A stretch of DNA of 56,456 bases from assembly GCA_964365185.1 (NCBI GenBank), contig CAYIOP010000004.1, positions 1-56,456 on the forward strand. Reading direction: 5' to 3'. Shown in pieces: positions 2 through 30,318 of the stretch (position 1 is the stretch's first letter; the number at the start of each line of letters is the position of its first letter). A program made the translations under genes and the position numbers. The DNA comes from an uncultured Candidatus Saccharibacteria bacterium. Its GTDB lineage: Bacteria; Patescibacteriota; Minisyncoccia; UBA6257; 2-01-FULL-56-20. A model generated the notes under the pieces. The model was given only the letters and a program-made list of their open reading frames with translations. It had not been told where the DNA came from and ran no database searches.

Positions 2-3000
2 ATTAAATTAATTGATGGCCGCACTGGCCGTCCTTTTGATCGTCCCGTAACTGTCGGTTATATCTACATGATGAAGTTAAACCATCTAGTTGAAGACAAG
101 GTTCACGTCCGATCGATTGGTCCTTATTCGCTTATCACCCAGCAACCCCTAGGCGGTAAAGCTCAATTTGGAGGTCAGCGTTTTGGGGAGATGGAGGTCT
201 GGGCTCTTGAGGGTTATGGCGCCCGCCACACCCTTCAGGAAATGTTGACTATAAAATCCGATGACATCCTCGGCCGTTCATCGGCTTATGAATCAATAAT
301 CCGGGGAGAAAAAATCAAAAAACCTAACATTCCGGCTTCTTTTAATGTTTTACTTGCGGAACTCAAATCGCTAGGTTTTAATATTGAGCCCCTCTATGAT
401 TCCAATGAAAAAAACGATGCGTTTAAGGCTCTTAAAATTAATGTGGCCTCGCCTCAAGATATTTTAAGATGGTCTCACGGAGAAGTAGTTAAGCCCGAGA
501 CCATTAATTACCGCACTCAGCGCCCTGAAAAGGATGGTCTTTTTTCTGAGAGAATTTTTGGTCCCACTAAGGATTATGAGTGTTACTGCGGTAAATATCG
601 GCGTATTCGTTATAAAAATGTTGTTTGCGATAAATGCGGCGTCGAAGTCACCCGTTCCATTGTTCGCCGCGAACGCATGGGGCATATTGAGTTATCCACT
701 CCGGTTTGTCATATTTGGTTCTTAAAAAGCGTTCCGTCGAGGTTAAGTCTAATTTTAAATACCTCCTCTTCTAAACTAGAACGAGTTATTTATTATTCAG
801 CTTATATTGTCACCGACGTTGACGAGACCGCTCGAAAACAGGCCCTTGAAGAATTAGACAGGGAACTTAAAAGCAAACTTAAAATTGTCGGCGCCAAAGA
901 TCCTAAAGTTAAAAAAGATTTAGTTGGAGCCGCCAGTCAAACTCGAGAATTTTTAAATAATCTTAGGGCTGGAGATATTTTAAGTGAATTGGAATATTTC
1001 AATATTTCCCGCCGCTTCGGCAATGTTTTTCGAGCTGGCAGCGGCGCCGAAGCTGTTCGCTCTATCTTAGAAAAAATTGATCTTAGAAAAGACGTTCAAA
1101 AAATAGAAAAAGAAATTAATTCTCCCGGGAAAAAACAGGTTGATTTAAGGCAGTACCGCCGCCTTAAAATGCTCAAGGCCATGATAAAAAACAACACTCG
1201 GCCGGAGTGGATGATTATCACCGTCTTGCCTGTGCTGCCTCCCGACCTAAGGCCAATGGTGGCTTTAGATGGCGGCCGTTACGCCACTTCAGATTTAAAT
1301 GATCTTTATCGCCGAGTCATCAACCGCAATAATCGTTTGAAAAAACTGCTCGAGATTAAAGCGCCAGATGTTATCGTCAAAAACGAGAAACGCATGCTCC
1401 AAGAAGCGGTAGATGCGCTCATTGATAACTCCGCTCGCTTTGGCACTCAACAACTTTCCACTCAACGCCGTCCGCTTCGATCTCTCGCGGATATGTTAAA
1501 AGGTAAACAAGGTCGGTTTAGGCAAAATCTTTTGGGCAAAAGAGTTGATTATTCTGGCCGTTCGGTTATTGTCGTGGGTCCAAAATTAAAAATTAATGAA
1601 TGTGGTTTGCCTAAAAAAATGGCTCTTGAATTATTCCGTCCTTTTGTTATTAGTGAAATTATCAAACGGGGCTTAGCTAATAATATCCGGAGCGCCAACC
1701 GGATTCTTGAGCAAACCAGCGACGAAATTTGGGCTATTCTTGAAGAAATTATTAAAGATCGCTATGTCTTATTAAATCGCGCTCCCACTCTCCATCGTTT
1801 AAGCGTTCAGGCCTTTAAACCCATTCTCGTTGAGGGCTTAGCTATTCAGATCCCTCCTTTAATTTGTATGGCTTTTAACGCCGATTTCGACGGCGACCAG
1901 ATGGCGGTTCATTTACCTCTCTCCGAAGAGGCCCAATTGGAGTCCAAAACCATCATGTCGGCTAACCGCAATCTTTTAAAACCCGCTACCGGAGACCTGA
2001 TTACTATTCCTACTCAAGATGTGGTTTTGGGCATTTATTACCTCACTCAACTTGATCAGAGTTTTTCTGGACCGGCTAAACATTTTATTGACGCCGAAGA
2101 TGCCCTCTTGGCTTATAATTACAGTATTATTAATTTAAGGCAGCCGATTAAAATAGGATTCTCTGATGCAATTCTCGAAACAACTGTGGGGCGATTAATC
2201 TTCAATCAGATTTTTCAAGGGGAAATCGCTTTTATCAATAAAACTTTAAATAAGAAAGAACTTTCCAAGATTCTAGATGAATACGTCGAGAATTACGGTT
2301 TTGAAAAAACTGGCGATATTTTGGACAAAATTAAACTGTTGGGTTTTGAAAGGTCAACCCGGTCAGGGATTACTTGGGCTACTTCTGATTTAATTATTCC
2401 CAAAGAGAAGCCCCAAATCTTAAAAGAAGCTGAAGTTAAAGTTGACGAAGTTTACAGCCAGTTTTTTAGCGGTCTTTTAACTAATGAAGAGCGGCGCATT
2501 CGAATTATTAATGCTTGGGAAGAAGCCAAGAAAAAGATTTCAGAATTGGTTCTGAAAGTCCTGCCACCCAATAATTCTATTTATCAAATTATCGATTCAG
2601 GGTCGCGTGGTTCTTGGATCCAGCCCATTCAAATGATGGGCATGAAAGGTTTAGTTCAAAATTCTCAAGGCGCAACCATTGAATTGCCCATCAAATCTTC
2701 CCTCAAAGAAGGGCTTTCGGTTCTCGAATATTTCATCTCAACTCATGGTGCCAGAAAAGGCACAACTGACACTGCGCTTAAAACCGCTCAAGCCGGTTAT
2801 CTTACTCGACGGCTAGTTGATGTTTCTCAAGATATCTTCACTAAAGAAGAAGATTGTCGCACCACCGAAGGTATTGAAATCGTTCGGGTTGATGGCCAGA
2901 AAATCAATCAATCTTTTACCAGCCGGATTTTTTCCAGAACTTCTCTCGAGGAAATTAAGATTGGCCGCAAAATTATCATTAAGCCCAATGAAATCATCAA

Positions 3001-4063
3001 CAAAGTTAACGCCGAATTAATTGATAAATCAGAAATTGCCTCAGTTAGAGTTCGTTCGCCGATTACCTGCAAAACTCTATACGGCATTTGTAATCGATGT
3101 TACGGTTTTAATTTAGGAGATAATCGGCCCATTAAAATCGGGGAAGCGGTCGGCGTTGTCGCCGCTCAATCCATCGGCGAGCCCGGCACGCAGCTTACCA
3201 TGCGTACTTTCCACTCTGGCGGTGTTGCCGGAGTCGACATCACTCATGGTCTGCCCAGAATCGAAGAAATTTTTGAAGCTCGTCCGCCTAAAGGTAAGGC
3301 TATTTTGGCTTATGAGGACGGAGTTGTTCAAAACATCGAAGAAAGGGGAACCCTCCGCGTTCTTTCTTTATCTACCGACAAAAAGAAAGCCACCTCTTCC
3401 AAAAAAACTTCCAAAGCCGCCAAATTTGCCGAATACTCTATTTCGAGTTCATCTTCATTTTTGGTTAAGATTGGCGATAGCGTTAAGAAGGGAGATCAAA
3501 TTTCAAACGGCAACCTCGACCTAAAAGAACTGCTGGAATTTAGAGGTAAGCACGAGGTTGAGAAATATATCGTGAGCGAAGTTCAGAAAATTTATTTCTC
3601 CGAAGGCGCTTCTATTAACAATAAACATATCGAAGTTATCGTAAAACAAATGTTCTCTCGGGTTAAAATTAAAGACGCGGGCGACGCTCCCGATCTGGTT
3701 ATCGGTGAAATTATTGAAAAACCAAAATTTCTGGAAATTAATCGCGAACTAAAAAAACAAAATCACGAACCCGCTAAGGCCGAGCAACTTTTAATGGGCA
3801 TTACTCAAGTGGCTCTCTCTACCGAAAGTTTCTTGTCGTCCGCTTCCTTCCAAGACACCGCTCGAGTTTTGGTTAGGTCGGCCATTGAGTCCCGTATCGA
3901 TCCTCTTCGGGGCCTCAAGGAAAACGTTATTATTGGTCGCCTTATTCCTACCGCCCACTCAAAAGAAGTTGAGGCATTAGCCAATCGAGTAGCGGCAGAA
4001 TCACCAGAAGAAGAAAAAACCCTAGAGGTCGCCACGCTTGACGAATCCGCCAAAGTCAGCTAA
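2..4063 (+). CDS. rpoC: RNA polymerase beta subunit C-terminal end (5' partial, open to the window edge) fused in frame to a full-length beta-prime subunit
   Basis: Frame 2 is open from nt 2. The first ~110 aa are the RpoB C-terminus ([75 protein letters not shown]). It runs without a stop into the RpoC N-terminus ([24 protein letters not shown], Zn motif [30 protein letters not shown]). Confidence 0.92.
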
Positions 4064-4557: not shown

Positions 4558-5037
4558 ATGAACCTAAACAAAGTTTTTATCATCGGCCGATTAACCGCCG
4601 ACCTTCAACTTAAAACCACGCCCAGTGGCCAGTCGGTTTCAAGTTTCAGTGTTGCCACCAATCGAGTTTGGAATGATAAATCCGGCGCCAAGCAAGAAAG
4701 CACCGAGTTTCACAATGTGGTGGTTTGGGGTAAGCAGGCCGAAGTGGCCAGTCAATTTTTAACTAAAGGCAGTTTGGTTATGATTGAGGGCCATCTTCAA
4801 ACTCGTTCTTGGACCGATAAACAAAGTCAAACAAGAAAAACCACCGAGATTGTCTGTGAGCGCATTCAATTTGGGCCTAGGTCTAGCGGGGGAGGCAATA
4901 GGGCTGATTCATCTTTTTCTAAACCCACCAATCCTTCCCAAAATCCAAATATCGATGTTCCTCCCCAAGAAGATATTCCAGTAATCGATCTTGAGGGCGA
5001 CAAAGAAGACATCAAACCCGAAGACATCCCATTTTAG
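4558..5037 (+). CDS. ssb: single-stranded DNA-binding protein
   Basis: OB-fold motifs ([39 protein letters not shown]), a Gly/Pro-rich tail and an acidic C-terminal tip (EDIPF). Confidence 0.9.
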
Positions 5038-6360: not shown

Positions 6361-7809
6361 ATGCCCAACTACACCCCCACTATTGGTTTAGAAATCCATA
6401 CTGAACTTAAGACCAAAACTAAGATGTTTTGTGATTCTCCCAATAATCCCGAAGAGCATCACCCCAATGTGAATGTGTGTCCGGTTTGCTTGGGCCACCC
6501 TGGCGCTCTGCCGACAATAAATAAAGAAGCTGTCGAGTTTGTTATTAAAACTGGTTTAGCCCTCGGTGGAGAAATTAATCCCGAAACTAAATTTGACCGT
6601 AAAAATTATTTCTACCCCGATCTTCCCAAGGGTTATCAAATTTCTCAATACGATAAACCTCTAATTTTGGGCGGTACTCTAAATGGCATCACTCTTCGCC
6701 GCATTCATTTAGAAGAAGACACCGGTCGCCTGCTTCATTCGTCACGAGTTATAAGTCATCAGTCGCCAGTTAGTTATGTCGACTTCAACCGCGCTGGCGT
6801 ACCCTTGATGGAGTTGGTGACCGAACCCGAAATAAAATCTGGCGAAGAAGCGGCAAAATTCGCCAAAGAATTCCAGTTGATTTTACGTTACTTAGATATT
6901 TCAACCGCGGATATGGAAAAAGGTCAGATGAGAGTTGAGGTGAATATATCTTTAGGCAAATGGACAAAAGGCGTTTGGAAGCAGGGGACTAAAGTGGAAA
7001 TCAAAAATCTAAATTCCTTCCGAGCTGTTGCCGAATCGATTGATTATGAAATTAAGCGCCAGGCCGAAGTGATGAAGCATAGCAAAGTGCATCAAGAAAC
7101 CCGTGGCTGGGATGACGCCAAAAAAGAAACCACTTCGCAACGTTCCAAAGAAGAAGCTCACGACTACCGCTATTTTCCCGAGCCAGATTTACCGCCTTTT
7201 GAAACCGCCTCTTTTAATCTGGATGATTTAAAATCATCTATTCTCGAATTACCCAAAGAGAAAAGAGAACGCTTTAAAAAAGAGTTTCAGTTAAACGAAA
7301 GCCAGGCCGAAGTTTTAATCGCTGATAAAAAACTTTCCGATTTTTTTGAGTCCGCTGTCTCCGAACTAAAAGTCAAAAATCCTGCCGCCAACATCCAAAT
7401 GCTTTTCAACTATCTAACCAGCGACCTTGTTGGGCTACTAAACGAGACTAGTACCCCTTTTGAAGAAATTAAGGTCTCGCCCGAAGAGCTGGCTCATTTG
7501 GTCGCGTTAATTGAACAAGGCAAAATCTTAAGCCGTGGCGCCAAAGACATTTTACGCAAGATGTTTGAAACCGGCGAAGACCCAGAAACCATTCTTGAGT
7601 CCGAAGGCCTACATTTGGTTTCCGATGAAAAAGAAATCGAAAAAATTATCCAAGCAGTCATCGTCGAAAACGAAAAAGCTGTCGCCGACTACAAAGGTGG
7701 CAAAGAAGCCAGCTTAAAATTTTTAATCGGCCAAGCTATGGGGAAGTTGAGAGGGAAGGGGAATCCGGAAGTCCTAAAAGAGCTTTTTCTGAAGCACTTG
7801 ACAAAGTAG
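6361..7809 (+). CDS. gatB: Asp/Glu-tRNA(Asn/Gln) amidotransferase subunit B
   Basis: PTIGLEIHTEL, VCPVCLGHPGALP, FDRKNYFYPDLPKGYQISQ, and a C-terminal YqeY-like tail. Confidence 0.95.
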   Translation: MPNYTPTIGLEIHTELKTKTKMFCDSPNNPEEHHPNVNVCPVCLGHPGALPTINKEAVEFVIKTGLALGGEINPETKFDRKNYFYPDLPKGYQISQYDKPLILGGTLNGITLRRIHLEEDTGRLLHSSRVISHQSPVSYVDFNRAGVPLMELVTEPEIKSGEEAAKFAKEFQLILRYLDISTADMEKGQMRVEVNISLGKWTKGVWKQGTKVEIKNLNSFRAVAESIDYEIKRQAEVMKHSKVHQETRGWDDAKKETTSQRSKEEAHDYRYFPEPDLPPFETASFNLDDLKSSILELPKEKRERFKKEFQLNESQAEVLIADKKLSDFFESAVSELKVKNPAANIQMLFNYLTSDLVGLLNETSTPFEEIKVSPEELAHLVALIEQGKILSRGAKDILRKMFETGEDPETILESEGLHLVSDEKEIEKIIQAVIVENEKAVADYKGGKEASLKFLIGQAMGKLRGKGNPEVLKELFLKHLTK

Positions 7810-8166: not shown

Positions 8167-8790
8167 ATGTCTGACAGGTTCACATTTAATAGTGCTGGTC
8201 AGGTTCACGAGCTCGAAATGGCGATGGATCGAGCCGGCGACTGGAGCGCCGCATTAGTGAAGCGGTTGTGCGAAGAGGACCGCTTGACTAAGGTCCGGGA
8301 CTATCTCCTCGGTCTAGCCGAAATCAGATATCCCGAACACATCATCGACTGCGACGCCGTCCCATTTGTTCCGAAAAATTGGGAAGTGGAGCATCACCAG
8401 AAGGGCGGGCAATTTAAGTTCGATCCCACCAAGGTGTTGTTCTACTTATCTGAATCGCAGAGTAGCGGTGGGGTTATAAAGGGACATGAACTTCGCAAGG
8501 AGATGGCTGATAAGCCGGTTCTAAACGCGAATGTCCTTGATTACCTCATTGTTAATCCACACCTCATTCCCGAGGAATGGAAGTTAGACGAGCAGGGCCG
8601 CACTCGTTACATCTTTTTCTGGGGTACAATTTACCGCGACTCGGACGGCGACCTGTATGTGCGCTATCTGTCTTTCGAGGACAGTGGCTGGGACTGGGGC
8701 TACCGCTGGCTTGACGGCGGTTGGCGCGGCGCGAGCCCCGCGGCTCTTCTCGCAAGTATCCCCGCCGGAGCGCAAGCGCAGGCGGGTTGA
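8167..8790 (+). CDS. DGR target protein (hypothetical, 207 aa) with a C-terminal variable region
   Basis: Clearly more G+C-rich than its neighbours. The C-terminus (SDGDLYVRYLSFEDSGWDWGYRWLDGGWRGASPAALLAS) is the variable copy of the downstream template repeat. Confidence 0.85.
   Translation: MSDRFTFNSAGQVHELEMAMDRAGDWSAALVKRLCEEDRLTKVRDYLLGLAEIRYPEHIIDCDAVPFVPKNWEVEHHQKGGQFKFDPTKVLFYLSESQSSGGVIKGHELRKEMADKPVLNANVLDYLIVNPHLIPEEWKLDEQGRTRYIFFWGTIYRDSDGDLYVRYLSFEDSGWDWGYRWLDGGWRGASPAALLASIPAGAQAQAG
8631..8757 (+). repeat. DGR variable repeat (VR)
   Basis: 127-nt match to 9148-9274 (offset 517). It differs only where the other copy has adenine. Confidence 0.85.
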
Positions 8791-8838: not shown

Positions 8839-8882
8839 AGAGAACTTTATAGCTTTTGTTTAAAATTTTGATCCCTATATTT

Positions 8883-8915
8883 ATCCGCGCTCAAATTCTT
8901 GGCGCGGATTTTTTT
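8883..8915 (+). terminator. intrinsic terminator of the target gene
   Basis: ATCCGCGC..GCGCGGAT stem followed by TTTTTTT. Confidence 0.6.
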
Positions 8916-8923
8916 GATATAAT
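8915..8923 (+). promoter_or_regulatory. extended -10 promoter element (TGATATAAT) upstream of the TR
   Basis: TGnTATAAT match immediately after the terminator, about 225 nt upstream of the TR. Confidence 0.4.
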
Positions 8924-9147
8924 AAAAACGGCAGTAGGTGAATATGCGGGCGGCTACGGTTTCCCGCTACCGAACCCGGGTTCTTGTCTCGAGAGCATCT
9001 CCGGTTACGGCTTGAGATGGAATGGGACAGGAATATCCGAAAAAAGTGAAGATACTTGGTGTAGGATGCTAGGGCATTTTAGATGCCGAATAAGATACAG
9101 CCCAGAGAATATTCAATGGGCAGTGGCGCGGATGGCATTTTACACAG

Positions 9148-9274
9148 AAACCGCGACTCGAACGGCAACCTGTATGTGCGCTATCTGTATTTCAAGGACA
9201 GTGGCTGGAACTGGAGCTACAACTGGCTTAACAACGATTGGCGCGGCGCGAGCCCCGCGGCTCTTCTCGCAAAT
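9148..9274 (+). repeat. DGR template repeat (TR), non-coding
   Basis: Adenine-rich copy with six in-frame-equivalent AAC triplets. All VR differences map to its adenines. The ORFs predicted across it (8856-9302, 9083-9364) are not credible. Confidence 0.85.
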
Positions 9275-9284
9275 CACTTCACTT

Positions 9285-9320
9285 CTCCCTCAAATAATCT
9301 GAGGGAGTTTTATTTTTTTT
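9285..9320 (+). terminator. intrinsic terminator immediately 3' of the TR
   Basis: CTCCCTCA-AATAATC-TGAGGGAG stem-loop followed by TTTTATTTTTTTT. Confidence 0.65.
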
Positions 9321-9396: not shown

Positions 9397-10373
9397 TCGT
9401 CTAGTAATTTTCTTACCAATTTCTCCACTTCCGATTTTCGCGAAATCCACACGATATTTTTATCTCGCCTAAACCATGTCATCTGCCGCTTGGCGTAGCG
9501 CCAAATCTCAACTACCGACTTTTCAATCATCTCCTCGCGGCTGATCTTCTCCTCTAAAAATAAATTCACAATCGGATACTCCATCCCAATCTCCTTTAGT
9601 CGTTTCTCTGACACTCCTGATTTTTTTAAACCCTGAACCTCAATTACCAATCCGCGCCTCAACCACTCCATCAATCGCTTTCGAATAATGTTTTTCAATT
9701 TCCGACCATCAATTTTTAATCCAATCTTCAATGCCTGATATTTATCTATTCTAATATTCTCAAGAACACTAGAATAAGACGATTTACCGGTTTGAATCGC
9801 AATTTCAATCGCTCGTACCAGCCGGCGCCGGTTGTGTTGGTCAATATTTTCCGCCCGTCGCGGGTCTAATTTTTTTAGCCCTCTGAATAACTCTTCGGTT
9901 GTTTTTCTCTCTAACTTCCTGCGAAGCAGGGGATTGGGCTTTACTTCCGGAAAAGTCCGCTCGCCCAAAAGCGTGTCAATATAAAGTCCGGTTCCCCCGC
10001 AGATAATTGGCAACCGGCCGCGCCGCCAAATATCTTTTATCGCTTTCTCGGCCATTCGCTTATACACCGCCACGCTAAAAACTTTCTTCACGCTCGCCAC
10101 GTCAATCAAATGATGCCGTATCCCTTTGTAGTAGTATTTATTTACCTGACACCTGACACCTGGCACCTGGCACCTTTCGCAGGGTATTTTCCCCGTCCCA
10201 ATATTAAGCTCCCGATACACCTGCCTTGAATCCGCCGAGATAACCTCGCCGTTGAACTTCTTGGCCATCTGAATCGCGAGCTCTGATTTACCGCTCCCAG
10301 TCGGCCCCAAAATCACCAGTATTTTAGGCCTTACTTTCCGGCTATTTCCCGCTATTGACAATTTATTTATCAT
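9393..10373 (-). CDS. miaA: tRNA dimethylallyltransferase
   Basis: P-loop ILGPTGSGKSELA, ISADSRQVYRELNIGTGK, RHHLIDV. Confidence 0.9.
   Translation of the reverse strand: MINKLSIAGNSRKVRPKILVILGPTGSGKSELAIQMAKKFNGEVISADSRQVYRELNIGTGKIPCERCQVPGVRCQVNKYYYKGIRHHLIDVASVKKVFSVAVYKRMAEKAIKDIWRRGRLPIICGGTGLYIDTLLGERTFPEVKPNPLLRRKLERKTTEELFRGLKKLDPRRAENIDQHNRRRLVRAIEIAIQTGKSSYSSVLENIRIDKYQALKIGLKIDGRKLKNIIRKRLMEWLRRGLVIEVQGLKKSGVSEKRLKEIGMEYPIVNLFLEEKISREEMIEKSVVEIWRYAKRQMTWFRRDKNIVWISRKSEVEKLVRKLLDD
9746..9777. repeat. palindromic element copy inside miaA (CTATTCTAATATTCT-CA-AGAACACTAGAATAA)
   Basis: About 33 of 36 nt identical to the intergenic perfect palindrome at 31287-31318. Here it encodes SVLENIRID. 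Confidence 0.65.
10144..10175. repeat. heptanucleotide tandem repeat (ACCTGRC x4.5) inside miaA
   Basis: ACCTGAC ACCTGAC ACCTGGC ACCTGGC ACCT. It encodes CQVPGVRCQV within a lineage-specific insert. Confidence 0.85.
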
Positions 10374-12447: not shown

Positions 12448-12693
12448 ATGTTAACTCAATTTATAATTAAAAAACTAAAAACCGCCCGGTATAAAATTTT
12501 AAAAGATGGTGTTTATTTTGGCGAAATTCCCGGCCTTCGCGGTGTTTGGGCTAGCGCCAAAAATCTCGAAGATTGCCGGCGTGAATTAGCCGAGGTTTTA
12601 GAGGACTGGCTTTTGCTTAAAATCCGCAGCCACGCCAAAATTCCTGGTTTTAAAATAAAAGTTGATCGGCGCGAGCTCGTGAGAAATGCCTAA
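12448..12693 (+). CDS. hicB: HicB-family antitoxin
   Basis: YFGEIPGLRGVWASAKNLEDCRRELAEVLEDWLL. It overlaps the downstream HicA gene by 8 nt. I prefer the ATG at 12448 over the TTG at 12421. Confidence 0.7.
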   Translation: MLTQFIIKKLKTARYKILKDGVYFGEIPGLRGVWASAKNLEDCRRELAEVLEDWLLLKIRSHAKIPGFKIKVDRRELVRNA

Positions 12694-12901
12694 AAATGTT
12701 TCGTGGCGTAAGTTAGTCCAGAGATTTAGGCAACTTGGTTTTGATGGCCCCTATTCCGGAGGGCGCCACCTGTTTATGTCTAAAGGAGAATTCAAAGTTC
12801 GCATTCCCAATCCTCACAAAGGCGATATTTCGAAACATTTACTTTCGGAAATTTTGCGTCAATCTGGAATATCAACTAAGGACTGGGACAATGTAAAATA
12901 A
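12686..12901 (+). CDS. hicA: HicA-family mRNA interferase toxin
   Basis: WRKLVQRFRQLGFDGPYSGGRHLFMSKGEFKVRIPNPHKGDISKHLLSEILRQSGIS matches the HicA/YcfA pattern. Confidence 0.8.
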   Translation: MPKNVSWRKLVQRFRQLGFDGPYSGGRHLFMSKGEFKVRIPNPHKGDISKHLLSEILRQSGISTKDWDNVK

Positions 12902-13330: not shown

Positions 13331-14644
13331 ATGCTCGACATCAAACTCATCCGCGAAAATCCCGACCGCGTAAAACTCGGGGTTAAGTCAAAAGGAATAA
13401 GTCCCAAATTAGTGGACGACTTTTTGGCGCTGGATGAAAAATGGAGAAAATTAACCCAAGAATCCGAAAATCTCCGGGCGGAACAGAAAAAAGCCGGTGA
13501 GGCCAAAGATGTGGCCAAGGCCAAAAAACTCAAAGAAAAAATCTCTGGCTTAAACGAGGATTTGGAAAAAACTGGCCACAAGCGCGATATTCTGCTTTTG
13601 GAATTTCCCAATCTACCGTTTGAAGATGTTCCGGTTGGCAAAGATGAATCAAGCAACAAAGTTCTCCGCGAAGTGGGGGACAAGCCCGACCTTAAAAACC
13701 CCAGCGACTACTCAACTCTCGCCGAAAAACTGGATTTAATCGACACCGAAAAAGCTGGCGCCATCTCCGGTTCTCGTTTCGGCTATCTCAAAAACGAAGC
13801 TGTTTTGCTTGAATTCGCGCTTATTGACTTGGCTATGAAAACTTTAGTTAAAGAGGGTTTCTCGCCCATCCTGCCGCCGGTCTTGGTAAAGCCCGAAATT
13901 ATGAAAGCTATGGGTAAACAAAAATTTATCGCGGAAAAAGATGCTTACTATCTTCCTGAAGATAATCTTTATCTGGTCGGCTCCTCTGAACACTCTATTG
14001 GTCCCTATCATATGAGCGAAACCTTAAGTGAAGCTGACTTGCCCAAACGCTATGTCGGTTTTTCAACTTGTTTCCGCCGTGAAGCCGGCAGTTATGGCAA
14101 AGACACCAAAGGCTTTTTAAGAGTGCATCAATTCGACAAAGTTGAAATGGTGGTTTTCTCCAAACCCGAGGATTCGGAAAAAGAACACCAGAAAATGCTG
14201 GCCTTACAGGAAAAATTAATGCAGACGCTTGAATTGCCGTATCGCGTGGTTGAAATCTGCAGCGGCGATATGACTTTTGCCGACGCCCGCCAATTTGACA
14301 TCGAAGCCTGGTTTCCGAGTCAGGGCGAATATCGCGAAACCCATTCTTGCTCCAATACCACCGACTATCAAGCCCGCGGGTTAAACACTCGTTACAAATC
14401 CCTAACACCTTCCGCCAAAGGCGGATCCTCCTTTGGAGGAAACACCTCCAGTGTCCGTCCGCAGCTTCAGGCGAAGGCGGAAAACCTAAAACCTGACTTT
14501 GTTCACATTCTAAACGGAACCGTTTTTTCCGGGCGGCCTATTTTGGCGATTATCGAAAACTTTCAAACTCCAGACGGCAAAATCAAAATTCCCAAAATTT
14601 TACAGGACTATGTTGGCAAAAAAGAAATCGGGTTTAAAAATTAG
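13331..14644 (+). CDS. serS: seryl-tRNA synthetase with a ~25-aa insert
   Basis: MLDIKLIRENP, motif 2 TCFRREAGSYGKDTKGFLRVHQFDKVE, HILNGT..ILAIIENFQ. Confidence 0.95.
   Translation: MLDIKLIRENPDRVKLGVKSKGISPKLVDDFLALDEKWRKLTQESENLRAEQKKAGEAKDVAKAKKLKEKISGLNEDLEKTGHKRDILLLEFPNLPFEDVPVGKDESSNKVLREVGDKPDLKNPSDYSTLAEKLDLIDTEKAGAISGSRFGYLKNEAVLLEFALIDLAMKTLVKEGFSPILPPVLVKPEIMKAMGKQKFIAEKDAYYLPEDNLYLVGSSEHSIGPYHMSETLSEADLPKRYVGFSTCFRREAGSYGKDTKGFLRVHQFDKVEMVVFSKPEDSEKEHQKMLALQEKLMQTLELPYRVVEICSGDMTFADARQFDIEAWFPSQGEYRETHSCSNTTDYQARGLNTRYKSLTPSAKGGSSFGGNTSSVRPQLQAKAENLKPDFVHILNGTVFSGRPILAIIENFQTPDGKIKIPKILQDYVGKKEIGFKN
14411..14440. repeat. 30-nt double-hairpin element, copy 1 (in serS, in frame)
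   Basis: TCCGCCAAAGGCGGA + TCCTCCTTTGGAGGA with a central GGATCC. It encodes SAKGGSSFGG and is flanked on both sides by AACACCT (14404-14410, 14441-14447). Confidence 0.85.
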
Positions 14645-23523: not shown

Positions 23524-24108
23524 ATGAAATTTTTATCTGAATATAAACCTTACCTTATTTTCTCGGGGCTTTTTGTCTGCGGGTTAGCCGTAATTTTAAT
23601 TATTTCTTCCGGGCTTTATCCTATTGCGTTAGTCAACGGCAAGTTTTTAAGCGCCCGCACTCTCGAAGACCATCTTCAAGCCGAATCAATTTACTATCAA
23701 AATTTTCTTAAAACCTACACCACGCCTGACACCAAAATCGAAAAAATCACAGTCGAGGATTTAAAAAAATTTATCCTCACTAAATTAATTGAGAATGTTT
23801 TAGTGAATAATGAAGTGGAGAAAAAGTTGGGCAACGACTTAAATGTTATTATTGAAGACCGGATTCAAAAAATTACCCAAGACCAAAAACTCGAAAAAGC
23901 CGCCACTGCCATCTACGGCCTGACTTTTGAAGATTTTCGAGAGGAGATTTTAGTGCCGCTAGCCAAAGAAGACATTCTAGCCGGCCGCCTTTTTTTGGAA
24001 GGCCAAAATTTTGACGACTGGCTCGCAAGCGCTAAAAAATTAAGTAAAGTAAAAATTTTTTCCACTAATTTTTATTGGGATGGAGAAGAAGTCCAAACCA
24101 AACCCTAG
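23524..24108 (+). CDS. membrane-anchored hypothetical protein, possibly a SurA N-terminal-like chaperone domain
   Basis: N-terminal TM, then VNGKFLSARTLEDHL. Weak similarity only. Confidence 0.35.
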   Translation: MKFLSEYKPYLIFSGLFVCGLAVILIISSGLYPIALVNGKFLSARTLEDHLQAESIYYQNFLKTYTTPDTKIEKITVEDLKKFILTKLIENVLVNNEVEKKLGNDLNVIIEDRIQKITQDQKLEKAATAIYGLTFEDFREEILVPLAKEDILAGRLFLEGQNFDDWLASAKKLSKVKIFSTNFYWDGEEVQTKP

Positions 24109-24219
24109 AACTTGAATCAAGAATTATGAATAATGCTTGCCCTCTGTAATCTTGATGAAGGAGGGAATCGTGAATCTTAAATCTTGAAAATCTAATAATT
24201 GATACTTCATTGATAATTG

Positions 24220-24249
24220 TCCTCCGAAGGAGGATCCGCCTCCGGCGGA
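24220..24249. repeat. 30-nt double-hairpin element, copy 2 (intergenic)
   Basis: TCCTCCGAAGGAGGA + TCCGCCTCCGGCGGA, flanked by ATAATTG / ATTATTG. Confidence 0.85.
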
Positions 24250-24311
24250 ATTATTGAAAATTGTAATTTTGGATTTATTTAGAACTTAGGATTTAGAAAT
24301 TAGAGCTTTTT

Positions 24312-24950
24312 ATGAATACTCTTCAAGAATTAGTCAGCAATCTTATTTTTGATGGTTATCTAAAAACCCCGCGGCTAATTGAGGCCTTTAAAAAAATTGA
24401 CCGGGCGGATTTTGTTTCGGAAGAGTATCGACATCTAGCTTATATCAATGAGCCACTTCCTATTGGCCACAATCAAACCATCTCCCAGCCCTTAACTGTG
24501 GCTTTTATGCTCGAATTCTTAGAGCCCAAACCTGGAGAAAAAATTTTGGATATTGGCTCTGGTTCTGGTTGGCAAACTGCGCTTTTGGCTCAAATTGTCG
24601 GGCCAGAAGGAAAAGTTTTGGCGATGGAAAGAATTCTGGAACTGAAAAGTATGACCGAAGCTAATTTAAAAAAATATAGTTTTGTAGAAAAGGGGATTGT
24701 GAAAGTGATTTATGAAAATGCCGGGAAAGGCGCGCCCCAAAGCTTAGTTCCTAAAGGAGGATTTGATAAAATCATCGCTGCTGCCTCTGCCGAGAATATT
24801 CCCGCTATCTGGAAAGAGCAGCTAAAAATCGGTGGTCGCATCGTGGCCCCAGTTGGCCACAGCATCGTTGCCATCGACAAAATCTCTGAGAATGAATTTA
24901 GGGAAAAAGAATATTTTGGCTTCGCCTTCGTGCCTTTAATAGAGGATTGA
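24312..24950 (+). CDS. pcm: protein-L-isoaspartate O-methyltransferase
   Basis: GHNQTISQPLTVAFMLE and the SAM motif ILDIGSGSGWQTALLA. Confidence 0.9.
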   Translation: MNTLQELVSNLIFDGYLKTPRLIEAFKKIDRADFVSEEYRHLAYINEPLPIGHNQTISQPLTVAFMLEFLEPKPGEKILDIGSGSGWQTALLAQIVGPEGKVLAMERILELKSMTEANLKKYSFVEKGIVKVIYENAGKGAPQSLVPKGGFDKIIAAASAENIPAIWKEQLKIGGRIVAPVGHSIVAIDKISENEFREKEYFGFAFVPLIED

Positions 24951-24988
24951 CCTTATTAATAAGCAAGGTTAGGATTTCTACAAAAGAC

Positions 24989-25062
24989 GCGGGATTAGTA
25001 TAGTGGTAATATATTTGCTTCCCAAGCAAAAGACGCGAGTTCGATTCTCGTATCCCGCTCCA
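24989..25062 (+). tRNA. tRNA-Gly (anticodon CCC), CCA encoded
   Basis: I folded it by hand. Acceptor GCGGGAT/ATCCCGC, D-loop AGTGGTA, anticodon stem TTTGC/GCAAA with loop TTCCCAA, T-arm GCGAG-TTCGATT-CTCGT, discriminator U, CCA. Confidence 0.9.
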
Positions 25063-25157
25063 AGATATTATATTGACACCCCTTTAGTTGTGGCCTATTC
25101 TGTCGTTGAAAGTAAACATAGCTCTTTTAATTTTCAACCTCTAAGGTGGTGAGAAAT

Positions 25158-25343
25158 ATGAATGGTAAAGTTTATTGGTGGACGGTCTTTGTGGTTGCTA
25201 TCATCTCGGTCTTAGCTGCTTTAATAATCAAAAATCCTATGTGCCTTCTCGGAATTCTTGGTGGGTTTGTCGTCGGGATTCCCTTCGGTCTTGTGACCAA
25301 AAAAGCTGAACCACGAATCCGCGGGTCTTCAAAGCGCATATAA
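25158..25343 (+). CDS. small 2-TM membrane protein, hypothetical
   Basis: AAGGTGG lies 7 nt upstream of the ATG at 25158, with a terminator downstream. Confidence 0.4.
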   Translation: MNGKVYWWTVFVVAIISVLAALIIKNPMCLLGILGGFVVGIPFGLVTKKAEPRIRGSSKRI

Positions 25344-25363
25344 AAACCACTTTCCAATTCTCC

Positions 25364-25393
25364 TTGTCCCGACCAAAATCGGGACAATTTTTT
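25364..25393 (+). terminator. intrinsic terminator
   Basis: TTGTCCCGA..TCGGGACAA stem followed by TTTTTT. Confidence 0.65.
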
Positions 25394-25509
25394 AATCTAC
25401 TTCTTCTTTACTTACTACTATATCTCAACTGTATTCCTATTGTATCTCTATTTGTACCTTTGCCATTTGCCATTTACCCTTTGCTTATCTATTCTATTAT
25501 TGAAATACT

Positions 25510-27225
25510 ATGCCCTCCTCACCTGTCGAACAAATTAAAGCCAAACTTGATGTTGTCGAGTTTTTAAAGGGTTATCTGGAGCTTCAAAAAGCCGGCAAGA
25601 ATTTTAAAGCCCGTTGCCCCTTTCATCGGGAAAAAACTCCTTCGTTTATGATTTCGCCCGACCGTGGGTCCTGGCGTTGTTTTGGCTGTAATCAGGGCGG
25701 CGACATTTTCACTTTTATAATGAAATATGAAAATCTGGAATTCGCCGAAGCGCTCAAAGTTCTAGCCGAGAAAGCCGGCATTGAGCTTCAGCGCATCAGC
25801 CCAGCCGACTACCGCCTTTTTGGCCTGCTTTACGATTTAAATGACATCGCCAAAGATTTTTTTAAAAAAGAATTAGCCAACTCCGAGCTCGCCCAAAAAT
25901 ATCTAAAAAGCCGTGGCCTCAAAACCGAAACTCTGGAAGATTTTGATATTGGTTTTGCCCCTAATAATTCCGAGTCCTTAAATCTCCATTTTGTAAATTT
26001 AGGTCATCGTCCGGAAGATGTTATTCGGGCTGGTCTGATTATTAAAAACGAAAAGAATGTTCAGTTTGATCGTTTTCGCGGCCGGATTATGTTTCCCATC
26101 CGCAATCACATGGGTAAAGTTGTCGGCTTCACCGGCCGCGTTCTGCCGGAGTTCGACACCGGTCAGACCGGTAAATATATGAATAGTCCCGAGACCCCGA
26201 TTTTCAATAAATCCAAACTGCTTTACGGTTTTTCTAAAGCCAAAGACGCTATCCGCGAATCCAAATTCGCTTTTTTAGTTGAAGGCCAGATGGATATGGT
26301 GATGGCTTGGCAATCCGGCGTAAGAAACGTGGTGGCCTCATCCGGCACTGCCCTTACTCCCGACCACTTAACTGCTTTAAAGCGCCTTACCGATCAACTG
26401 GTTATTAGTTTTGATAATGACGAAGCCGGATATGTCGCTGGCGAACGAGCTATTGACCTAGCCGAGAATATGGATTTTAATGTAAAGGTTGTCGTTTTTA
26501 ACGACTTTAAAGATGCTGCCGAGGCAGCTCAGGCGGGCGAGGAAATTTTAAAAAAACACCTTTCAAACTCCATTCCCGCCCCCAAATTTTATTTTGAGAG
26601 ATATCTCTCTGGAACCCAAAGTTTTAAAGATCGCGAGGCCCTAAGTAATCTTCGGGTCGTCCTCTCTAAAGTTAAAAATATATCGAGTCCGGTTGAACAA
26701 GGTTTTTGGCTCAAAGAATTATCTAACCTTACCAATATTCCCGAAAAAACCTTAAGCGAAGAAACTGATAAGTTAGTTGTTAGAAGCTCTGAAAACTTAT
26801 CAACTTCGCCAGAGAAAGAAAGTTCAACCAGCAATTTTGCCAATAATTTTTCCCGCTGGGATATTGTTAGCCAACGTTTCCTATCCGCTATTTTTGAGCA
26901 AGGCAATTTGGAAATGGCTGCGAGTAGTTTAGAGTATTTAAAACCCGAGTATCTAACTATTTTTGACCTGCTAAAACGCGGCGAGAAAAAAAGTAACGAC
27001 CCTGCTTTAGACCAGATGATCGATCTGATTCTCCTGCGTTCCGAAAATTTTGAAGCCGGTGAACTCGAAGATTTAAAACGCCATCTCTTTGCGGAATACG
27101 TTAAAGAAAAAAGAAACGCCATCACTAATAAAATCAAACAAGCCGAAAGTTCAAACGACGAACCCGCCTTAAAAATGGCCATGGCTGAATTAAACCAACT
27201 CAACTCCGCCCCACCTAAATTTTAA
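25510..27225 (+). CDS. dnaG: DNA primase
   Basis: Zn finger CPFHREKTPSF..CFGC and TOPRIM motifs (EGQMDMV, DNDEAG). Confidence 0.95.
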   Translation: MPSSPVEQIKAKLDVVEFLKGYLELQKAGKNFKARCPFHREKTPSFMISPDRGSWRCFGCNQGGDIFTFIMKYENLEFAEALKVLAEKAGIELQRISPADYRLFGLLYDLNDIAKDFFKKELANSELAQKYLKSRGLKTETLEDFDIGFAPNNSESLNLHFVNLGHRPEDVIRAGLIIKNEKNVQFDRFRGRIMFPIRNHMGKVVGFTGRVLPEFDTGQTGKYMNSPETPIFNKSKLLYGFSKAKDAIRESKFAFLVEGQMDMVMAWQSGVRNVVASSGTALTPDHLTALKRLTDQLVISFDNDEAGYVAGERAIDLAENMDFNVKVVVFNDFKDAAEAAQAGEEILKKHLSNSIPAPKFYFERYLSGTQSFKDREALSNLRVVLSKVKNISSPVEQGFWLKELSNLTNIPEKTLSEETDKLVVRSSENLSTSPEKESSTSNFANNFSRWDIVSQRFLSAIFEQGNLEMAASSLEYLKPEYLTIFDLLKRGEKKSNDPALDQMIDLILLRSENFEAGELEDLKRHLFAEYVKEKRNAITNKIKQAESSNDEPALKMAMAELNQLNSAPPKF

Positions 27226-27236
27226 AAATTTAAAAT

Positions 27237-28493
27237 ATGAAAAAAAAGAAACCGAAATTAAAACCACGGAAAATTGGCAAAGTTAAAAAACCTAAATCCA
27301 AGGCGAAAAAAGTTTTAAAAAAAGTTGCCAAAAAATTGGTTAAAAAACCAAAAAAAGCCAAAGTTTTAAAAGCCAAAAAAACCCCTGCGCCCAAAGTCCC
27401 TAAAAAAAGCAAAAAGGACTTAGACGAAACCGCCTTAAACGAACTTATCGAAACTGGCCGTCCGCGTGGTTTTGTGACCGACAATGAAATTCTTTATTAC
27501 TTTCCTAGAGTTGAGGAGGATTTATTTTTCCTCGAAGAAATTTACAACCGGCTCGAGAAAGCCGGCATTAAAGTCATCGAAACTACGGCTTTAATCGATA
27601 TCTCCAAAGATGAACCTTCTGAAAACGAATTAAAAAATATTGGTAAATTCGACACCGATGTGCCGGACGCCGTGCAAATGTATCTAAAAGAAATCGGCCG
27701 CACCCCGCTTTTAACCAAGGACGAAGAAAGAGATCTCGCCAAACGCTTGGAGCAAGGCGACGAAGAAGCCCGCCAAAAACTCATCAAAGCCAATTTGCGT
27801 TTAGTGGTCTCGATTGCTAAGCGTTACGCTAACCGCACGCCGCACTTAAGCATTCTGGACTTAACCCAAGAGGGAAATTTAGGGCTCGCCCGGGCAGTTG
27901 AAAAATTCGACTATCGCAAAGGGTTTAAATTCTCCACCTACGCCACTTGGTGGATTCGTCAGGCCATCACCCGCGCTCTGGCCGACCAGTCGCGCACCAT
28001 TCGTATTCCCGTGCATATGGTTGAGACCATTTCCAAATACACCCAAGTTCGCCGCCAATTAATGCAAGAGTTGGGCCGCGACCCTTTGGCCGAAGAAATC
28101 GCCTCCGAAATGAGCGTGGATGTGGAAAAAATCCGCCACATCCAAAAAATTTCCCAAGAAGTTCTCTCTATCGAATCACCGGTGGGCGAAGACGACGACT
28201 CCACTCTCTCCGATTTTATTCCAGATGAAAAAAATTCCTCGCCCTCACAACTAGTTACCCAGTCCTTGCTTCGGGACTTAATCAAAGAAGTTTTGGTGGA
28301 TTTAGCTGATCGGGAACAGAAAATTTTAAAAATGCGTTTTGGTTTAGAGGACGGCGTCTCTCATACCCTAGAAGAAGTGGGTAAGGTCTTCGGCGTCACC
28401 CGTGAGCGTATCCGTCAGATTGAAGCTAAGGCGCTTGAAAAAATCCGCGAGCACCACCACTCTGATGCCTTAAGAAGTTTTGATCAACTTTAG
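27237..28493 (+). CDS. rpoD: primary sigma-70 factor with a lysine-rich N-terminal tail
   Basis: Region 2 ([14 protein letters not shown]), region 3, region 4.2 ([23 protein letters not shown]), and the dnaG-rpoD linkage. Confidence 0.95.
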
Positions 28494-28524
28494 CTTTTTC
28501 GTACTTTAGTATATTTCCGCAATT

Positions 28525-30279
28525 ATGATTAGCTCAAGTGAAATAAGAAATAAATTTCTGGAATTTTTTAAAAAGCGTGACCACGCTATTGTACCGTCTT
28601 CTTCTTTAATTCCAGCCGATTCCTCGGTACTTTTAACCACCGCCGGCATGCAACAGTTTAAATCCTATTTTACCGGCGAGAATAATCCCGAAAATGACTT
28701 TAAAAGTAAAAATACCGTCTCGATTCAAAAATGTTTTCGCACCTCGGATATTGATGAAGTGGGGGACGAAACCCACCTCACTTTTTTTGAGATGCTCGGC
28801 AATTTCAGTTTTGGCGGCTATTTCAAAGAGCAGGCGATTAAGTTGGCGCACGAATTTATCACTCAAGAACTAGGGCTTGAAATTGATTATGTGAGCGTTT
28901 TTGTAGGCGACCCGGCAGCTGCCGGAGCCACCGCCGGAGCCGGAGTGTCCAAAGACGAAGAATCCGAAAAAATCTGGGGTTCTCTTGGGGTAAAAAATAT
29001 CAAATTTGCAGGCCGCGAAGATAACTTTTGGGGTCCCACTGGGAGCGAAGGCCCGTGCGGCCCCACCACCGAGATTTACGTGAATGGCGTTGAGGTCTGG
29101 AATATTGTTTTTAACGAGTATTACCAAGATTTAAGCGGAAAACTTGAGCCATTAAAACAAAAAGGCGTGGACACTGGCATGGGCTTGGAACGACTGGCGA
29201 TGGTGATACAGAATAAATCAAATCTTTTTGAGACAGATTTGTTTGAGCTGATTTTTAAAATCCTGCCGGCTGAAATGGACGCTAAAACCAAAAGAATTTT
29301 TGCCGACCACGCCCGGGGCATTTATTTTTTAATTTCTGATGGCGTTAGGCCTTCGAATAAAGAAGCGGGTTATATTTTGCGCCGTTTAATGCGTCGGCTA
29401 ATTTCATATCAAGCGAGCGTTGATATTTCTAAAATTTTTAAAGCCATAGTAGAAAATTATAGCGATTTTTATAAAGAGCTAAATCTTAAAATTGTTCTAA
29501 GTATTTTTGAAGAAGAAAATCAAAAATTTTCTAAAACCCTTTCCACTGGCCTTAAAGAATTATCAAAGCTTAAAGAAATAAACGCCCAATCCGCTTTTAA
29601 ACTATATGAAAGTTTTGGTCTGCCTTATGAAACCATCAAAGAAGTTGACGCCGGCAAAGCTAAAAACTTAACTCGCGAAGAATTTGATGAAGAGTTTAAA
29701 AAACATCAAGCTATCTCCCGCGCTGGGGCAGAGAAAAAATTCGGCGGTCACGGCTTGATTTTAAACACTGGTGAACTCAAAGCAGGGAGTGAGGAGGAAC
29801 TGCAAAAAGTGCTTCGGCTTCACACCGCCACTCACTTGCTCCAGCAAGCCCTGCGAGAAGTTTTAAGCAAAGAAGTAAGTCAAGCCGGCTCGGACATCAC
29901 TCCCGAACGCACTCGTTTTGATTTTAATTTTTCAAGGAAATTAACGCCCGAAGAAATCAAAAAAGTTGAAGGTTTGGTCAATCAAAAAATCAAAGAAGAC
30001 CTGCCGGTTAATTTTGTGGAACTACCCAAAAGCGAAGCCGAGAAAACCGGCGCCTTGCATTTTTTTTCCGCTAAAGGCGGATCCGCCTCCGGCGGAAAGG
30101 AAAAATATCCTGACAAAGTAAAAGTTTATTATGTCGGCCGTTCGCTAGAGGACGCTTGGAGCAAGGAGTTCTGCGGGGGACCGCATGTTGATCATACGGG
30201 TGTTATCGGTAAATTTAAAATAATTAAGGAAGAGGCCGTTGGACAAGATATAAGAAGAATCAGAGCCGTCGTTGAATAG
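28525..30279 (+). CDS. alaS: alanyl-tRNA synthetase, short form (584 aa) that appears to end after the editing domain
   Basis: FEMLGNFSFGGYFK and GMGLERL, plus editing-domain HTATHLL and CGGPHV. The ORF ends soon after the editing domain. Confidence 0.95.
   Translation: MISSSEIRNKFLEFFKKRDHAIVPSSSLIPADSSVLLTTAGMQQFKSYFTGENNPENDFKSKNTVSIQKCFRTSDIDEVGDETHLTFFEMLGNFSFGGYFKEQAIKLAHEFITQELGLEIDYVSVFVGDPAAAGATAGAGVSKDEESEKIWGSLGVKNIKFAGREDNFWGPTGSEGPCGPTTEIYVNGVEVWNIVFNEYYQDLSGKLEPLKQKGVDTGMGLERLAMVIQNKSNLFETDLFELIFKILPAEMDAKTKRIFADHARGIYFLISDGVRPSNKEAGYILRRLMRRLISYQASVDISKIFKAIVENYSDFYKELNLKIVLSIFEEENQKFSKTLSTGLKELSKLKEINAQSAFKLYESFGLPYETIKEVDAGKAKNLTREEFDEEFKKHQAISRAGAEKKFGGHGLILNTGELKAGSEEELQKVLRLHTATHLLQQALREVLSKEVSQAGSDITPERTRFDFNFSRKLTPEEIKKVEGLVNQKIKEDLPVNFVELPKSEAEKTGALHFFSAKGGSASGGKEKYPDKVKVYYVGRSLEDAWSKEFCGGPHVDHTGVIGKFKIIKEEAVGQDIRRIRAVVE
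30067..30096. repeat. 30-nt double-hairpin element, copy 3 (in alaS, in frame)
   Basis: TCCGCTAAAGGCGGA + TCCGCCTCCGGCGGA. It encodes SAKGGSASGG and splits the conserved GAL.FF/KEKY segment. Confidence 0.85.
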
Positions 30280-30286
30280 CTTCCAC

Positions 30287-30318
30287 GACATTTTAAGAGA
30301 ATATTCTCTTAAAATGTC
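30287..30318. repeat. 32-nt perfect palindrome 8 nt after the alaS stop
   Basis: GACATTTTAAGAGAAT|ATTCTCTTAAAATGTC with no T-run. Confidence 0.7.

Follow-up and report, generated by a model that had tools for sequence, protein, structure and literature searches.

A 30-bp double-hairpin element inserted in frame in conserved genes and spread over many phyla of uncultivated bacteria

In the 56,456 nucleotides of contig CAYIOP010000004.1 that were analysed here (assembly GCA_964365185.1, an uncultured Candidatus Saccharibacteria bacterium; this whole stretch is called the window in the following), a 30-bp GC-rich sequence consisting of two small hairpins occurs four times, in three protein-coding genes and in one spacer. 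The element constitutes a large family with hundreds of unrelated insertion sites, whose carriers are uncultivated bacteria from ten or more phyla, and each insertion compared with related genes is exactly 30 bp long, lacks a target-site duplication and lies at a (T/C)T^AA junction, the sign ^ marking the border of the element here and below. We therefore regard it, with a probability of about 0.7, as a non-autonomous, selfish or mobile hairpin insertion element, representing a large unnamed family of 30-bp GC-rich palindromic mini-insertions. The window matches a contig of a 0.1-µm-filtered groundwater metagenome, and the closest relatives of its proteins belong to Parcubacteria-type bacteria of the candidate phyla radiation (CPR). 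The four copies and their host genes are the following.

14411–14440, no strand assigned: element copy 1, TCCGCCAAAGGCGGA^TCCTCCTTTGGAGGA, in serS at codon position 1, read as SAKGGSSFGG
24220–24249, no strand assigned: element copy 2, TCCTCCGAAGGAGGA^TCCGCCTCCGGCGGA, intergenic, between the open reading frames (ORFs) 23524–24108 and 24312–24950 (in these four lines ^ separates the halves)
30067–30096, no strand assigned: element copy 3, TCCGCTAAAGGCGGA^TCCGCCTCCGGCGGA with a single mismatch in a stem, in alaS at codon position 1, read as SAKGGSASGG
53178–53207, no strand assigned: element copy 4, TCCTCCGAAGGAGGA^TCCTCCTCTGGAGGA, in a histidine-kinase gene at codon position 1, read as SSEGGSSSGG
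13331–14644, plus strand: serS, host gene, seryl-tRNA synthetase (SerRS) of 437 amino acids
28525–30279, plus strand: alaS, host gene, short CPR-type alanyl-tRNA synthetase (AlaRS) of 584 amino acids
51792–53456, plus strand: host gene, membrane histidine kinase of 554 amino acids

A search of the window with the pattern TCCKCCNNNGGMGGATCCKCCNNNGGMGGA, in which up to two mismatches were allowed, found only these four copies, starting at 14411, 24220, 30067 and 53178, while none of 100 dinucleotide-preserving shuffles contained a match. When the 15-nt half was used, the scan returned the eight halves of the four copies and two further one-mismatch matches that look like chance. All four positions given in a first-pass annotation, which had been made from the sequence of the window, thus stand, and its pattern fits three of the copies exactly; the alaS copy deviates by one mismatch (TCCGCT for TCCGCC). 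The codon position 1 and the peptides that had been read for the three genic copies agree with the translations of the serS, alaS and kinase ORFs (an example of an insert-bearing peptide is ...FFSAKGGSASGGK). Folded as single-stranded DNA, each copy is predicted to form two hairpins of 6 bp, each with a 3-nt loop (-8.9 to -11.5 kcal/mol per copy), except that the mismatched first half of the alaS copy folds with 5 bp and a 5-nt loop instead. Rfam covariance models reached their threshold in the window only for a tRNA at 24989–25059, and no family was matched by the element.

That the element is an insertion can be read from orthologues of the host genes, in case of AlaRS at the DNA level, in case of the kinase by length, and in case of SerRS by reconstruction of a repeat array. 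Among the 120 best AlaRS orthologues, 12 carry a 10-residue insert at GALHFF^KEKYP, some of them in a decayed state, and the site is uninterrupted in about 105. Filled sites are found in P0001-5, P0009, P0012 and P0064, a decayed insert in P0044/P0116. The DNA of two empty sites reads TTC TTC^AAA GAA and TTT TTC^AAG GGG, that of three filled sites TTT TTT[30]AAG GAA (twice) and TTC TTC[30]AAG TGG, which means that exactly the 30-mer has been inserted, with borders that cannot be shifted by one base. The clean 10-codon insertion that had been proposed to split a conserved AlaRS segment is thereby confirmed. Filled orthologues have the palindromic nucleotides, and not only the same residues. In a neighbour-joining tree calculated without the insert columns, the filled state occurs in at least five separate clades, as exemplified by (P0004,(P0005,(P0006 empty, P0008 empty))) and by the filled P0012 beside the empty P0022, and the site must thus have been subject to repeated gain as a hot spot, to precise loss, or to both. 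Other lineages have the element at two more AlaRS sites, YVTIF^...^KGS and FLEFF^...^NGH, again after a ..TT codon and before an AA.. codon, and another SerRS site is filled in other lineages as well. In the kinase, copy 4 lies in the C-terminal catalytic part, with VKVET on one side and KNSGGYVIFSVSDSGLGI on the other, and an orthologue of 50% identity differs in length by exactly 10 residues at this site. With SerRS included, the presence/absence comparison that had been suggested for all three genes is clean throughout.

The window alaS gene contains a further GC-rich insert of 48 nt (28901–28948) with the palindrome CCGGCAGCTGCCGG, coding for VGDPAAAGATAGAGVS. It is located at a second AlaRS hot spot, where other lineages have the element after ..YV(T/S)(I/V)F, and residues 133-137 within it have a predicted local distance difference test score (pLDDT) below 50 in the AlaRS model described below.

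The SerRS comparison appeared messy at first, with about 24 extra residues, and was resolved by the heptamer arrays in which the element is embedded. Copy 1 is situated in a variable surface loop ahead of FVHILNGT, and the arrays adjoining copies 1 and 2 consist of the following units.

14402–14410, plus strand: first heptamer array unit, CTAACACCT, including the left AACACCT (14404–14410); the element lies between two units, at CCT^AAC
14441–14447, plus strand: heptamer unit AACACCT, the right partner of the direct repeat described in the first-pass annotation
14481–14494, plus strand: heptamer units AAAACCT AAAACCT, part of the serS array that holds AACACCT
24213–24219, plus strand: heptamer unit ATAATTG, adjoining copy 2 on the left
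24250–24263, plus strand: heptamer units ATTATTG AAAATTG, adjoining copy 2 on the right

In the same surface loop, a relative with 74% identical SerRS (L129) has the array CTAATACCT CAAACCT CAAACCT CAAACCT without the element, whereas the window reads CTAACACCT [element] AACACCT [33-nt GC-rich insert] AAAACCT AAAACCT. Subtraction of both inserts from the window serS leaves exactly 39 nt, as in L129. Since this relative has the array without the element, and since the lengths match, the serS AACACCT repeat represents two neighbouring units of a pre-existing heptamer array. A more distant SerRS relative lacks the array. The 33-nt insert at 14448–14480, CCAGTGTCCGTCCGCAGCTTCAGGCGAAGGCGG (SSVRPQLQAKA), is a second GC-rich in-frame insert at the next heptamer junction of serS, and it is missing in L129, whose SerRS loop holds an in-frame 3x7-nt array. 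Its 3' end resembles the GGCGGA end of the element, yet an alignment to the consensus is unconvincing.

Could the flanking repeats nevertheless be the trace of a classical cut-and-paste MITE (miniature inverted-repeat transposable element) that has terminal inverted repeats and creates a target-site duplication of 7 bp? The repeats AACACCT/AACACCT and ATAATTG/ATTATTG are indeed present as had been described, and over the whole family the left 7-mer equals the right one in 6 of 124 copies and matches it in at least six of seven positions in 13, compared to 1.2 expected, the serS and intergenic copies of the window being among them. The excess is significant and is seen at length 7 alone. However, nearly all copies with matching 7-mers are accompanied by three or more heptamer units and hence lie in arrays, and such arrays are common without the element, as 134 element-free ones were counted in 885 kb of these loci. 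The array in the L129 SerRS matches exactly in length without any element, the AlaRS and kinase insertions are exactly 30 bp long, and a gain of 37 bp would break the reading frame. The 7-bp target-site duplication was therefore rejected, its length-7 signal being explained by pre-existing heptamer arrays, and a cut-and-paste MITE is essentially excluded.

We interpret the enrichment of the element at heptamer arrays as a real target preference and not as a duplication made by insertion. When the elements are removed in silico, 13 arrays span the element junction, and about 10% of the copies lie at heptamer unit junctions, while arrays make up less than 0.3% of the DNA. Counted in a comparable way, heptamer arrays are more numerous in element-bearing loci than arrays with a period of 5, 6 or 8; examples are found at 10144–10175 and 24170–24300 of the window, and in L005 (126–264), L019 (1930–1991) and L054 (4676–4914). 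In L080, about five tandem units of 15 nt, AACCTTTCACCTTCT, are found at 2495–2580 directly downstream of an element copy that lies in an AAGATT(G/A) heptamer array.

The first-pass annotation had proposed a genome-wide pattern search with a tabulation of codon phases. With the variable stem positions left open (TCCNCCNNNGGNGGATCCNCCNNNGGNGGA), at least 119 loci with the element were found among species-representative genomes, where about one match would be expected by chance for a pattern of 20 specified bases (596 Gb x 2 strands / 4^20, by our own arithmetic), and 77 of the 89 genic copies are at codon position 1. Four isolated copies that arose by chance from the coding of Gly/Ser linkers, a possibility that had been acknowledged, would not account for numbers that far exceed chance. 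The matches listed all come from metagenome-assembled genomes (MAGs) or single-cell genomes. Among them, about 60, i.e. about half, are labelled CPR/Patescibacteria, 12 Omnitrophota, and another 12 Kiritimatiellae, Lentisphaerae, Verrucomicrobiota or Planctomycetes; further labels are Elusimicrobia, Ignavibacteria, Bacteroidota, Melainabacteria, Firestonebacteria, KSB1, Chloroflexota, Firmicutes and Deltaproteobacteria, 11 are unclassified, and 11 are third-party "Gammaproteobacteria" whose labels we do not trust. The G+C content of the element-bearing loci ranges from 33 to 70%.

The element is also highly abundant in communities. In four groundwater runs, the summed contig depth is 1100–3600 over the element and 4–8 over its flanks, a 100–400-fold difference. 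At the serS copy, dozens of contigs diverge exactly at 14410 and 14442 and continue into unrelated flanks, and the alaS copy shows the same depth jump with diverging contigs. In a comparison of runs X3 and X7 with window positions 23800–30500, certain community contigs were seen to have two element copies 12–28 nt apart. Only 3 of 2.9 million viral contigs carry the element, and cultured plasmids and phages gave partial matches at chance level only.

As GGATCC, the BamHI site that encodes Gly-Ser, is common in engineered linkers, it may be asked whether the element is a contaminating synthetic linker, an assembly or library artefact, or chance linker coding after all. Such an origin could be suspected from the restriction to MAGs and single-cell genomes in the matches listed, and also from the literature, where searches with the core sequence, the peptide and keywords, mostly outside subscription journals, returned cloning primers and engineered linkers only, and no such element. 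Against this, the pattern is absent from dinucleotide shuffles, intergenic copies exist, the genic copies are biased in codon phase, decayed copies occur in orthologues, and stem changes are compensated as described below. Moreover, the element was recovered in IDBA, SPAdes, MEGAHIT and long-read assemblies from many laboratories, and its carriers include long-read MAGs with contigs of 0.7–1.6 Mb as well as a single-cell genome. These explanations are essentially excluded, with hardly any residual probability.

In one Kiritimatiellae MAG (L007), identical copies 1.8 kb apart first raised the idea of a gene-carrying transposon, which was rejected because both belong to a composite repeat of about 185 nt that is present twice (4569–4752 and 6390–6572). 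In this MAG and in a Patescibacteria MAG (L006, 320–390 and 530–590), a second GC-rich palindromic repeat of wide distribution (..CCTGCCCTGAGCGAAGTCGAAGGG.., with the peptide ..PALSEVEG..) lies immediately next to the element or to a decayed copy of it, and in L007 the two together make up the composite repeat.

The consensus derived from 125 copies reads tTT^TCCGCC-nrA-GGCGGA TCCGCC-Tyn-GGCGGA^AAa, and the information content falls to zero beyond three bases outward on either side; T(-1) and A(+32) occur jointly in 82 of 132 copies. The unit is always the doublet, with 128 doublets, no triplets and 25 apparent singlets. As these singlets are mostly visibly decayed doublets, a single or triple hairpin was rejected as the unit. 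At the variable stem position, 221 of 262 arms have G-C, and the 41 others include 22 with a Watson-Crick pair (14 T-A, 5 A-T, 3 C-G) and 3 with G-T. Changes on the two sides of the stem are clearly associated (Fisher p=6e-22, 262 arms), as the first-pass annotation had recognized from the few window arms, and 13 copies have two unlike halves that are each internally complementary. Since compensation takes place within each half, it is each small hairpin that is conserved, and not the dyad symmetry of the duplex. The earlier idea that the hairpin rather than the peptide shapes the unit is thus supported by a much larger sample. Loop 1 ends with A and loop 2 begins with T in 117 of 131 copies, and the middle loop positions favour transition mismatches (42 G/T and 34 A/C, versus 28 complementary), so that the element is polar and perfect 30-nt palindromes are a minority. 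The T-A arm variant accounts for 4 of 8 arms in the window, and for 3 of 4 and 1 of 2 in its relatives L050 and L126, respectively, as compared to 11 of 260 over all loci other than the window, L050 and L126 included (p=4e-4), which indicates a lineage-specific subfamily.

About two thirds of the copies lie within ORFs. A clearly dominant ORF could be assigned to 89 copies, the other 39 or so being non-genic or ambiguous, and the 77 copies at codon position 1 are accompanied by 3 in the second phase and by 9 in the third. Most off-phase copies are found in the first or last 6% of the stop-to-stop frame, and these probably lie outside the real gene; about four internal exceptions remain. In the preferred phase, both orientations of the element give S-A-x-G-G-S-A-x-G-G, since the codons TCC and GGA are reverse complements of each other, as are GCC and GGC, whereas the other phases, as read from the sequence, would result in P-P-x-A-D-P-P-x-A-E or in an Arg-rich peptide, and one of them would need T^AA at the empty site, i.e. 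a stop codon in the uninterrupted gene. The sense strand favours the orientation that gives K/E/Q and S (34 versus 13, p=0.003), and SAKGGSASGG is the commonest peptide. Intergenic copies have an 8:4 ratio in the same direction relative to neighbouring genes, which is not significant in this small sample, and selection on the peptide can therefore not be separated from strand-specific insertion.

The host proteins are diverse. For 64 genic copies, 145 Pfam families were matched, including DnaG, class I and class II aminoacyl-tRNA synthetases, Pol III alpha, Pol I, DnaK, ribonucleotide reductase and helicases. In the AlphaFold model of the window AlaRS, which has a mean pLDDT of 84, the insert (residues 515-526) is below 50 and without secondary structure, and is thus modelled as a disordered loop.

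Conserved stems in so many phyla, and an AlaRS site that is filled in several clades, would also be compatible with a functional cis-element that is spread by selection or by biased uptake, e.g. a site for a dimeric protein, a hairpin for RNA processing or stability, or a DNA-uptake signal. CPR bacteria are believed to rely on the uptake of DNA, and known uptake sequences occur also within genes and show frame biases. However, uptake sequences arise by point mutation, and the copies described here differ from orthologues by 30-bp insertions, not by substitutions. The positions in 145 protein families and in spacers are unrelated to each other, the loops vary freely, and copies whose halves differ from each other and yet pair internally speak against a protein site with dyad symmetry. 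With respect to RNA, the T...A flanks are the opposite of what a terminator would have, and this holds for both strands. We thus consider a cis-element very unlikely.

How could a mobile hairpin element of only 30 nt be inserted with base precision? An outcome of this kind is known from HUH/Y1 transposases, such as IS200/IS605 TnpA and RAYT, whose substrates are single-stranded DNA hairpins at replication forks and whose insertions are free of duplications. Similarly, the REPIN model describes hairpins in single-stranded DNA as the RAYT substrate (PMC3116915). The element may spread as single-stranded DNA folded into its two hairpins, and a trans-acting HUH/Y1-type enzyme, either IS200/IS605 TnpA or RAYT-like and following a "peel and paste" principle, might precisely cut and join the 30-mer; alternatively, host replication or repair activities at forks could serve as the agent. 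Within the interpretation as a mobile element, the HUH-type route is a possibility that we judge to be somewhat unlikely. A preference for slippage-prone arrays would suit a single-strand substrate, and genic insertions would survive only where ten flexible residues are tolerated. Only tentatively, at slightly less than even odds, may the element be seen as a cargo-less 30-nt double hairpin that is moved as single-stranded DNA by duplication-free, base-exact insertion, that has spread over groundwater phyla, and that is perhaps the smallest mobile DNA described.

Several points weigh against a mobile element of this kind. No recurrent transposase family was found among 149 ORFs in 21 multi-copy loci (an 8-kb piece per genome), nor did Pfam scans of 64 host ORFs indicate a recurrent autonomous partner or transposase, and half-site pairs enclosing a gene were not seen in the loci examined. 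Near-identical contigs of five runs did not show any precise 30-bp skip and thus no sign of current activity, although contigs drop rare variants. Identical stems over 33–70% G+C and in many phyla would demand that horizontal transfer is frequent or that the enzyme is shared very widely, and the taxon labels of certain third-party MAGs may not be reliable. Nor does this reading readily account for the enrichment at heptamer arrays. As regards the HUH class, IS200/IS605 elements depend on a specific flank at the 5' side alone, and the flanks of the 30-mer are biased symmetrically on both sides; the hairpins of known IS200/IS605 members are subterminal, and those of the 30-mer extend to its very ends.

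The main alternative to mobility of the element is an origin without any dedicated transposase, in which copies would be pasted from other copies at stalled or slipping forks or at breaks by template switching or repair, using 2-3 nt of T/A microhomology. Slippage-prone heptamer arrays would then be favoured sites, in agreement with the one tenth of copies that are exactly at heptamer junctions, the flanks are short T^A runs, the neighbouring ORFs offered no transposase partner, and CPR genomes are small and poor in transposases. Yet microhomology of 2-3 nt would rarely generate base-exact borders in considerably more than 100 copies, and the strict doublet as well as the compensation within hairpins point to recognition of a structure. 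We therefore consider template switching to be unlikely, and prefer the interpretation as a mobile hairpin insertion element.

Such an element does not fit into any of the known families tested. At least one defining feature of each is lacking, and it is assigned to none; closest in behaviour are the Rickettsia palindromic elements, and also REPINs and mitochondrial GC clusters. The IS200/IS605 family and its cargo-less derivatives (PATE-type MITEs) share with the 30-mer the lack of target-site duplications, the precise borders, a hairpin at either end and the short specific flank, which is TT^AA here. Known members of that family measure about 100 nt or more, and the 30-mer differs from them also by its terminal hairpins, its symmetric flanks and the failure to find TnpA among the neighbouring ORFs. 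Rickettsia palindromic elements occur in spacers and in frame in protein genes, an aminoacyl-tRNA synthetase included, and proliferated in a lineage-specific way; they are 100-150 bp long and confined to Rickettsiales (PMC1779305). Here the likeness is one of behaviour only, i.e. the in-frame position in genes and the presence in spacers, while the 30-bp TCCGCC/GGCGGA doublet is unrelated in sequence to the families RPE-1 to RPE-8 and distributed over many phyla of free-living or episymbiotic uncultured bacteria. The first-pass annotation had already described an in-frame two-hairpin unit that resembles these elements and yet belongs to none of the known families, and this view is borne out by the orthologue comparisons, the stem compensation, the phase bias and the number of loci.

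In case of REPs and REPINs, which are GC-rich palindromes of 20-40 bp, it is the inverted doublet that replicates whereas singlets decay, and an HUH tyrosine transposase has been proposed (PMC3116915, PMC3733652). REPs lie outside genes, and one of their ends bears the tetranucleotide GTAG or CGTC as a tag (PMC3733652). The inverted doublet with its few, mostly decayed singlets is a shared feature, but the element has no GTAG/CGTC tag (flanks tTT/AAa, ends TCC...GGA) and no spacer between its halves, it is mostly intragenic, and RAYT, whose gene usually has REP repeats on both sides, was not found in the 8-kb pieces searched. Mitochondrial GC clusters, double-hairpin elements and repetitive hairpin-forming elements are found in spacers and occasionally in protein and rRNA genes; GC clusters and double-hairpin elements stay in the transcript, have conserved stems and variable loops, and move by a mechanism that is not known (PMC2800124, PMC4478555). 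They are organellar and lie in an AT-rich context, and yeast GC42 is 42 nt long and uses an AG target site, its footprints being marked by two AG sets (PMC4478555). The 30-mer likewise is short and GC-rich with conserved stems and variable loops, but it is bacterial, occurs over 33–70% G+C, measures 30 bp, creates no duplication and is strongly biased in codon phase. Intragenic enterobacterial small mobile sequences and bacterial MITEs (Correia, ERIC/RU) are non-autonomous, sometimes lie in ORFs and add peptide segments, but they measure 100-170 bp and have terminal inverted repeats and duplications (PMC2759123, PMC3184786), so that the 30-mer is several-fold smaller and differs by the lack of a duplication. 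What is unusual about the 30-mer is its size, the base-exact insertion without duplication, a "coding-neutral" design, the invasion of essential genes, and the spread across phyla.

The window contains further repeats and neighbouring genes that may be recorded here. A different, AT-rich palindromic repeat of 34 nt, TATCTATTCTAAT(A/G)TTCTCAAGAACA(C/T)TAGAATA, is present at 9743–9776 and 31284–31317 in copies of 94% identity, one in a MiaA-like ORF on the minus strand and the other in a non-coding gap. Downstream of alaS, 1.2 kb (30280–31461) have no ORF of more than 90 amino acids and no Rfam family, and a near-perfect 40-nt hairpin (30283–30322) directly follows the alaS stop codon. Just upstream of serS, at 12448–12901 by correspondence with L001 9118–9571, there are genes for a HicB-like protein (UPF0150) and a HicA toxin, in place of which relatives have other toxin-antitoxin pairs, with HepT/nucleotidyltransferase in L129 and ParE in L130. 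A 123-nt direct repeat of 90% identity (8633–8755 and 9150–9272) lies in the small ORFs 8167–8790 and 8856–9302, which are probably paralogues.

The element accounts for otherwise unexplained 10-residue Gly/Ser insertions in conserved CPR proteins, such as aminoacyl-tRNA synthetases, primase, polymerases and DnaK, and these insertions affect alignments, phylogenies and structure predictions. It breaks short-read contigs and may cause mis-joins in MAGs, and it is a marker of DNA exchange between the phyla of groundwater consortia. If the proposed mobility holds true, the lower size limit of mobile or selfish DNA would be extended, and the 30-mer would be a tractable minimal substrate for finding the enzyme that moves hairpin repeats, a question to which there is no answer so far in case of mitochondrial GC clusters, and only a partial one in case of REPINs. 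The sequence would then be "pre-adapted" to coding regions, as both strands give Ser-Ala-x-Gly-Gly twice in the tolerated frame, and the element would generally supply essential proteins with new surface loops, both in CPR bacteria and in their neighbours.

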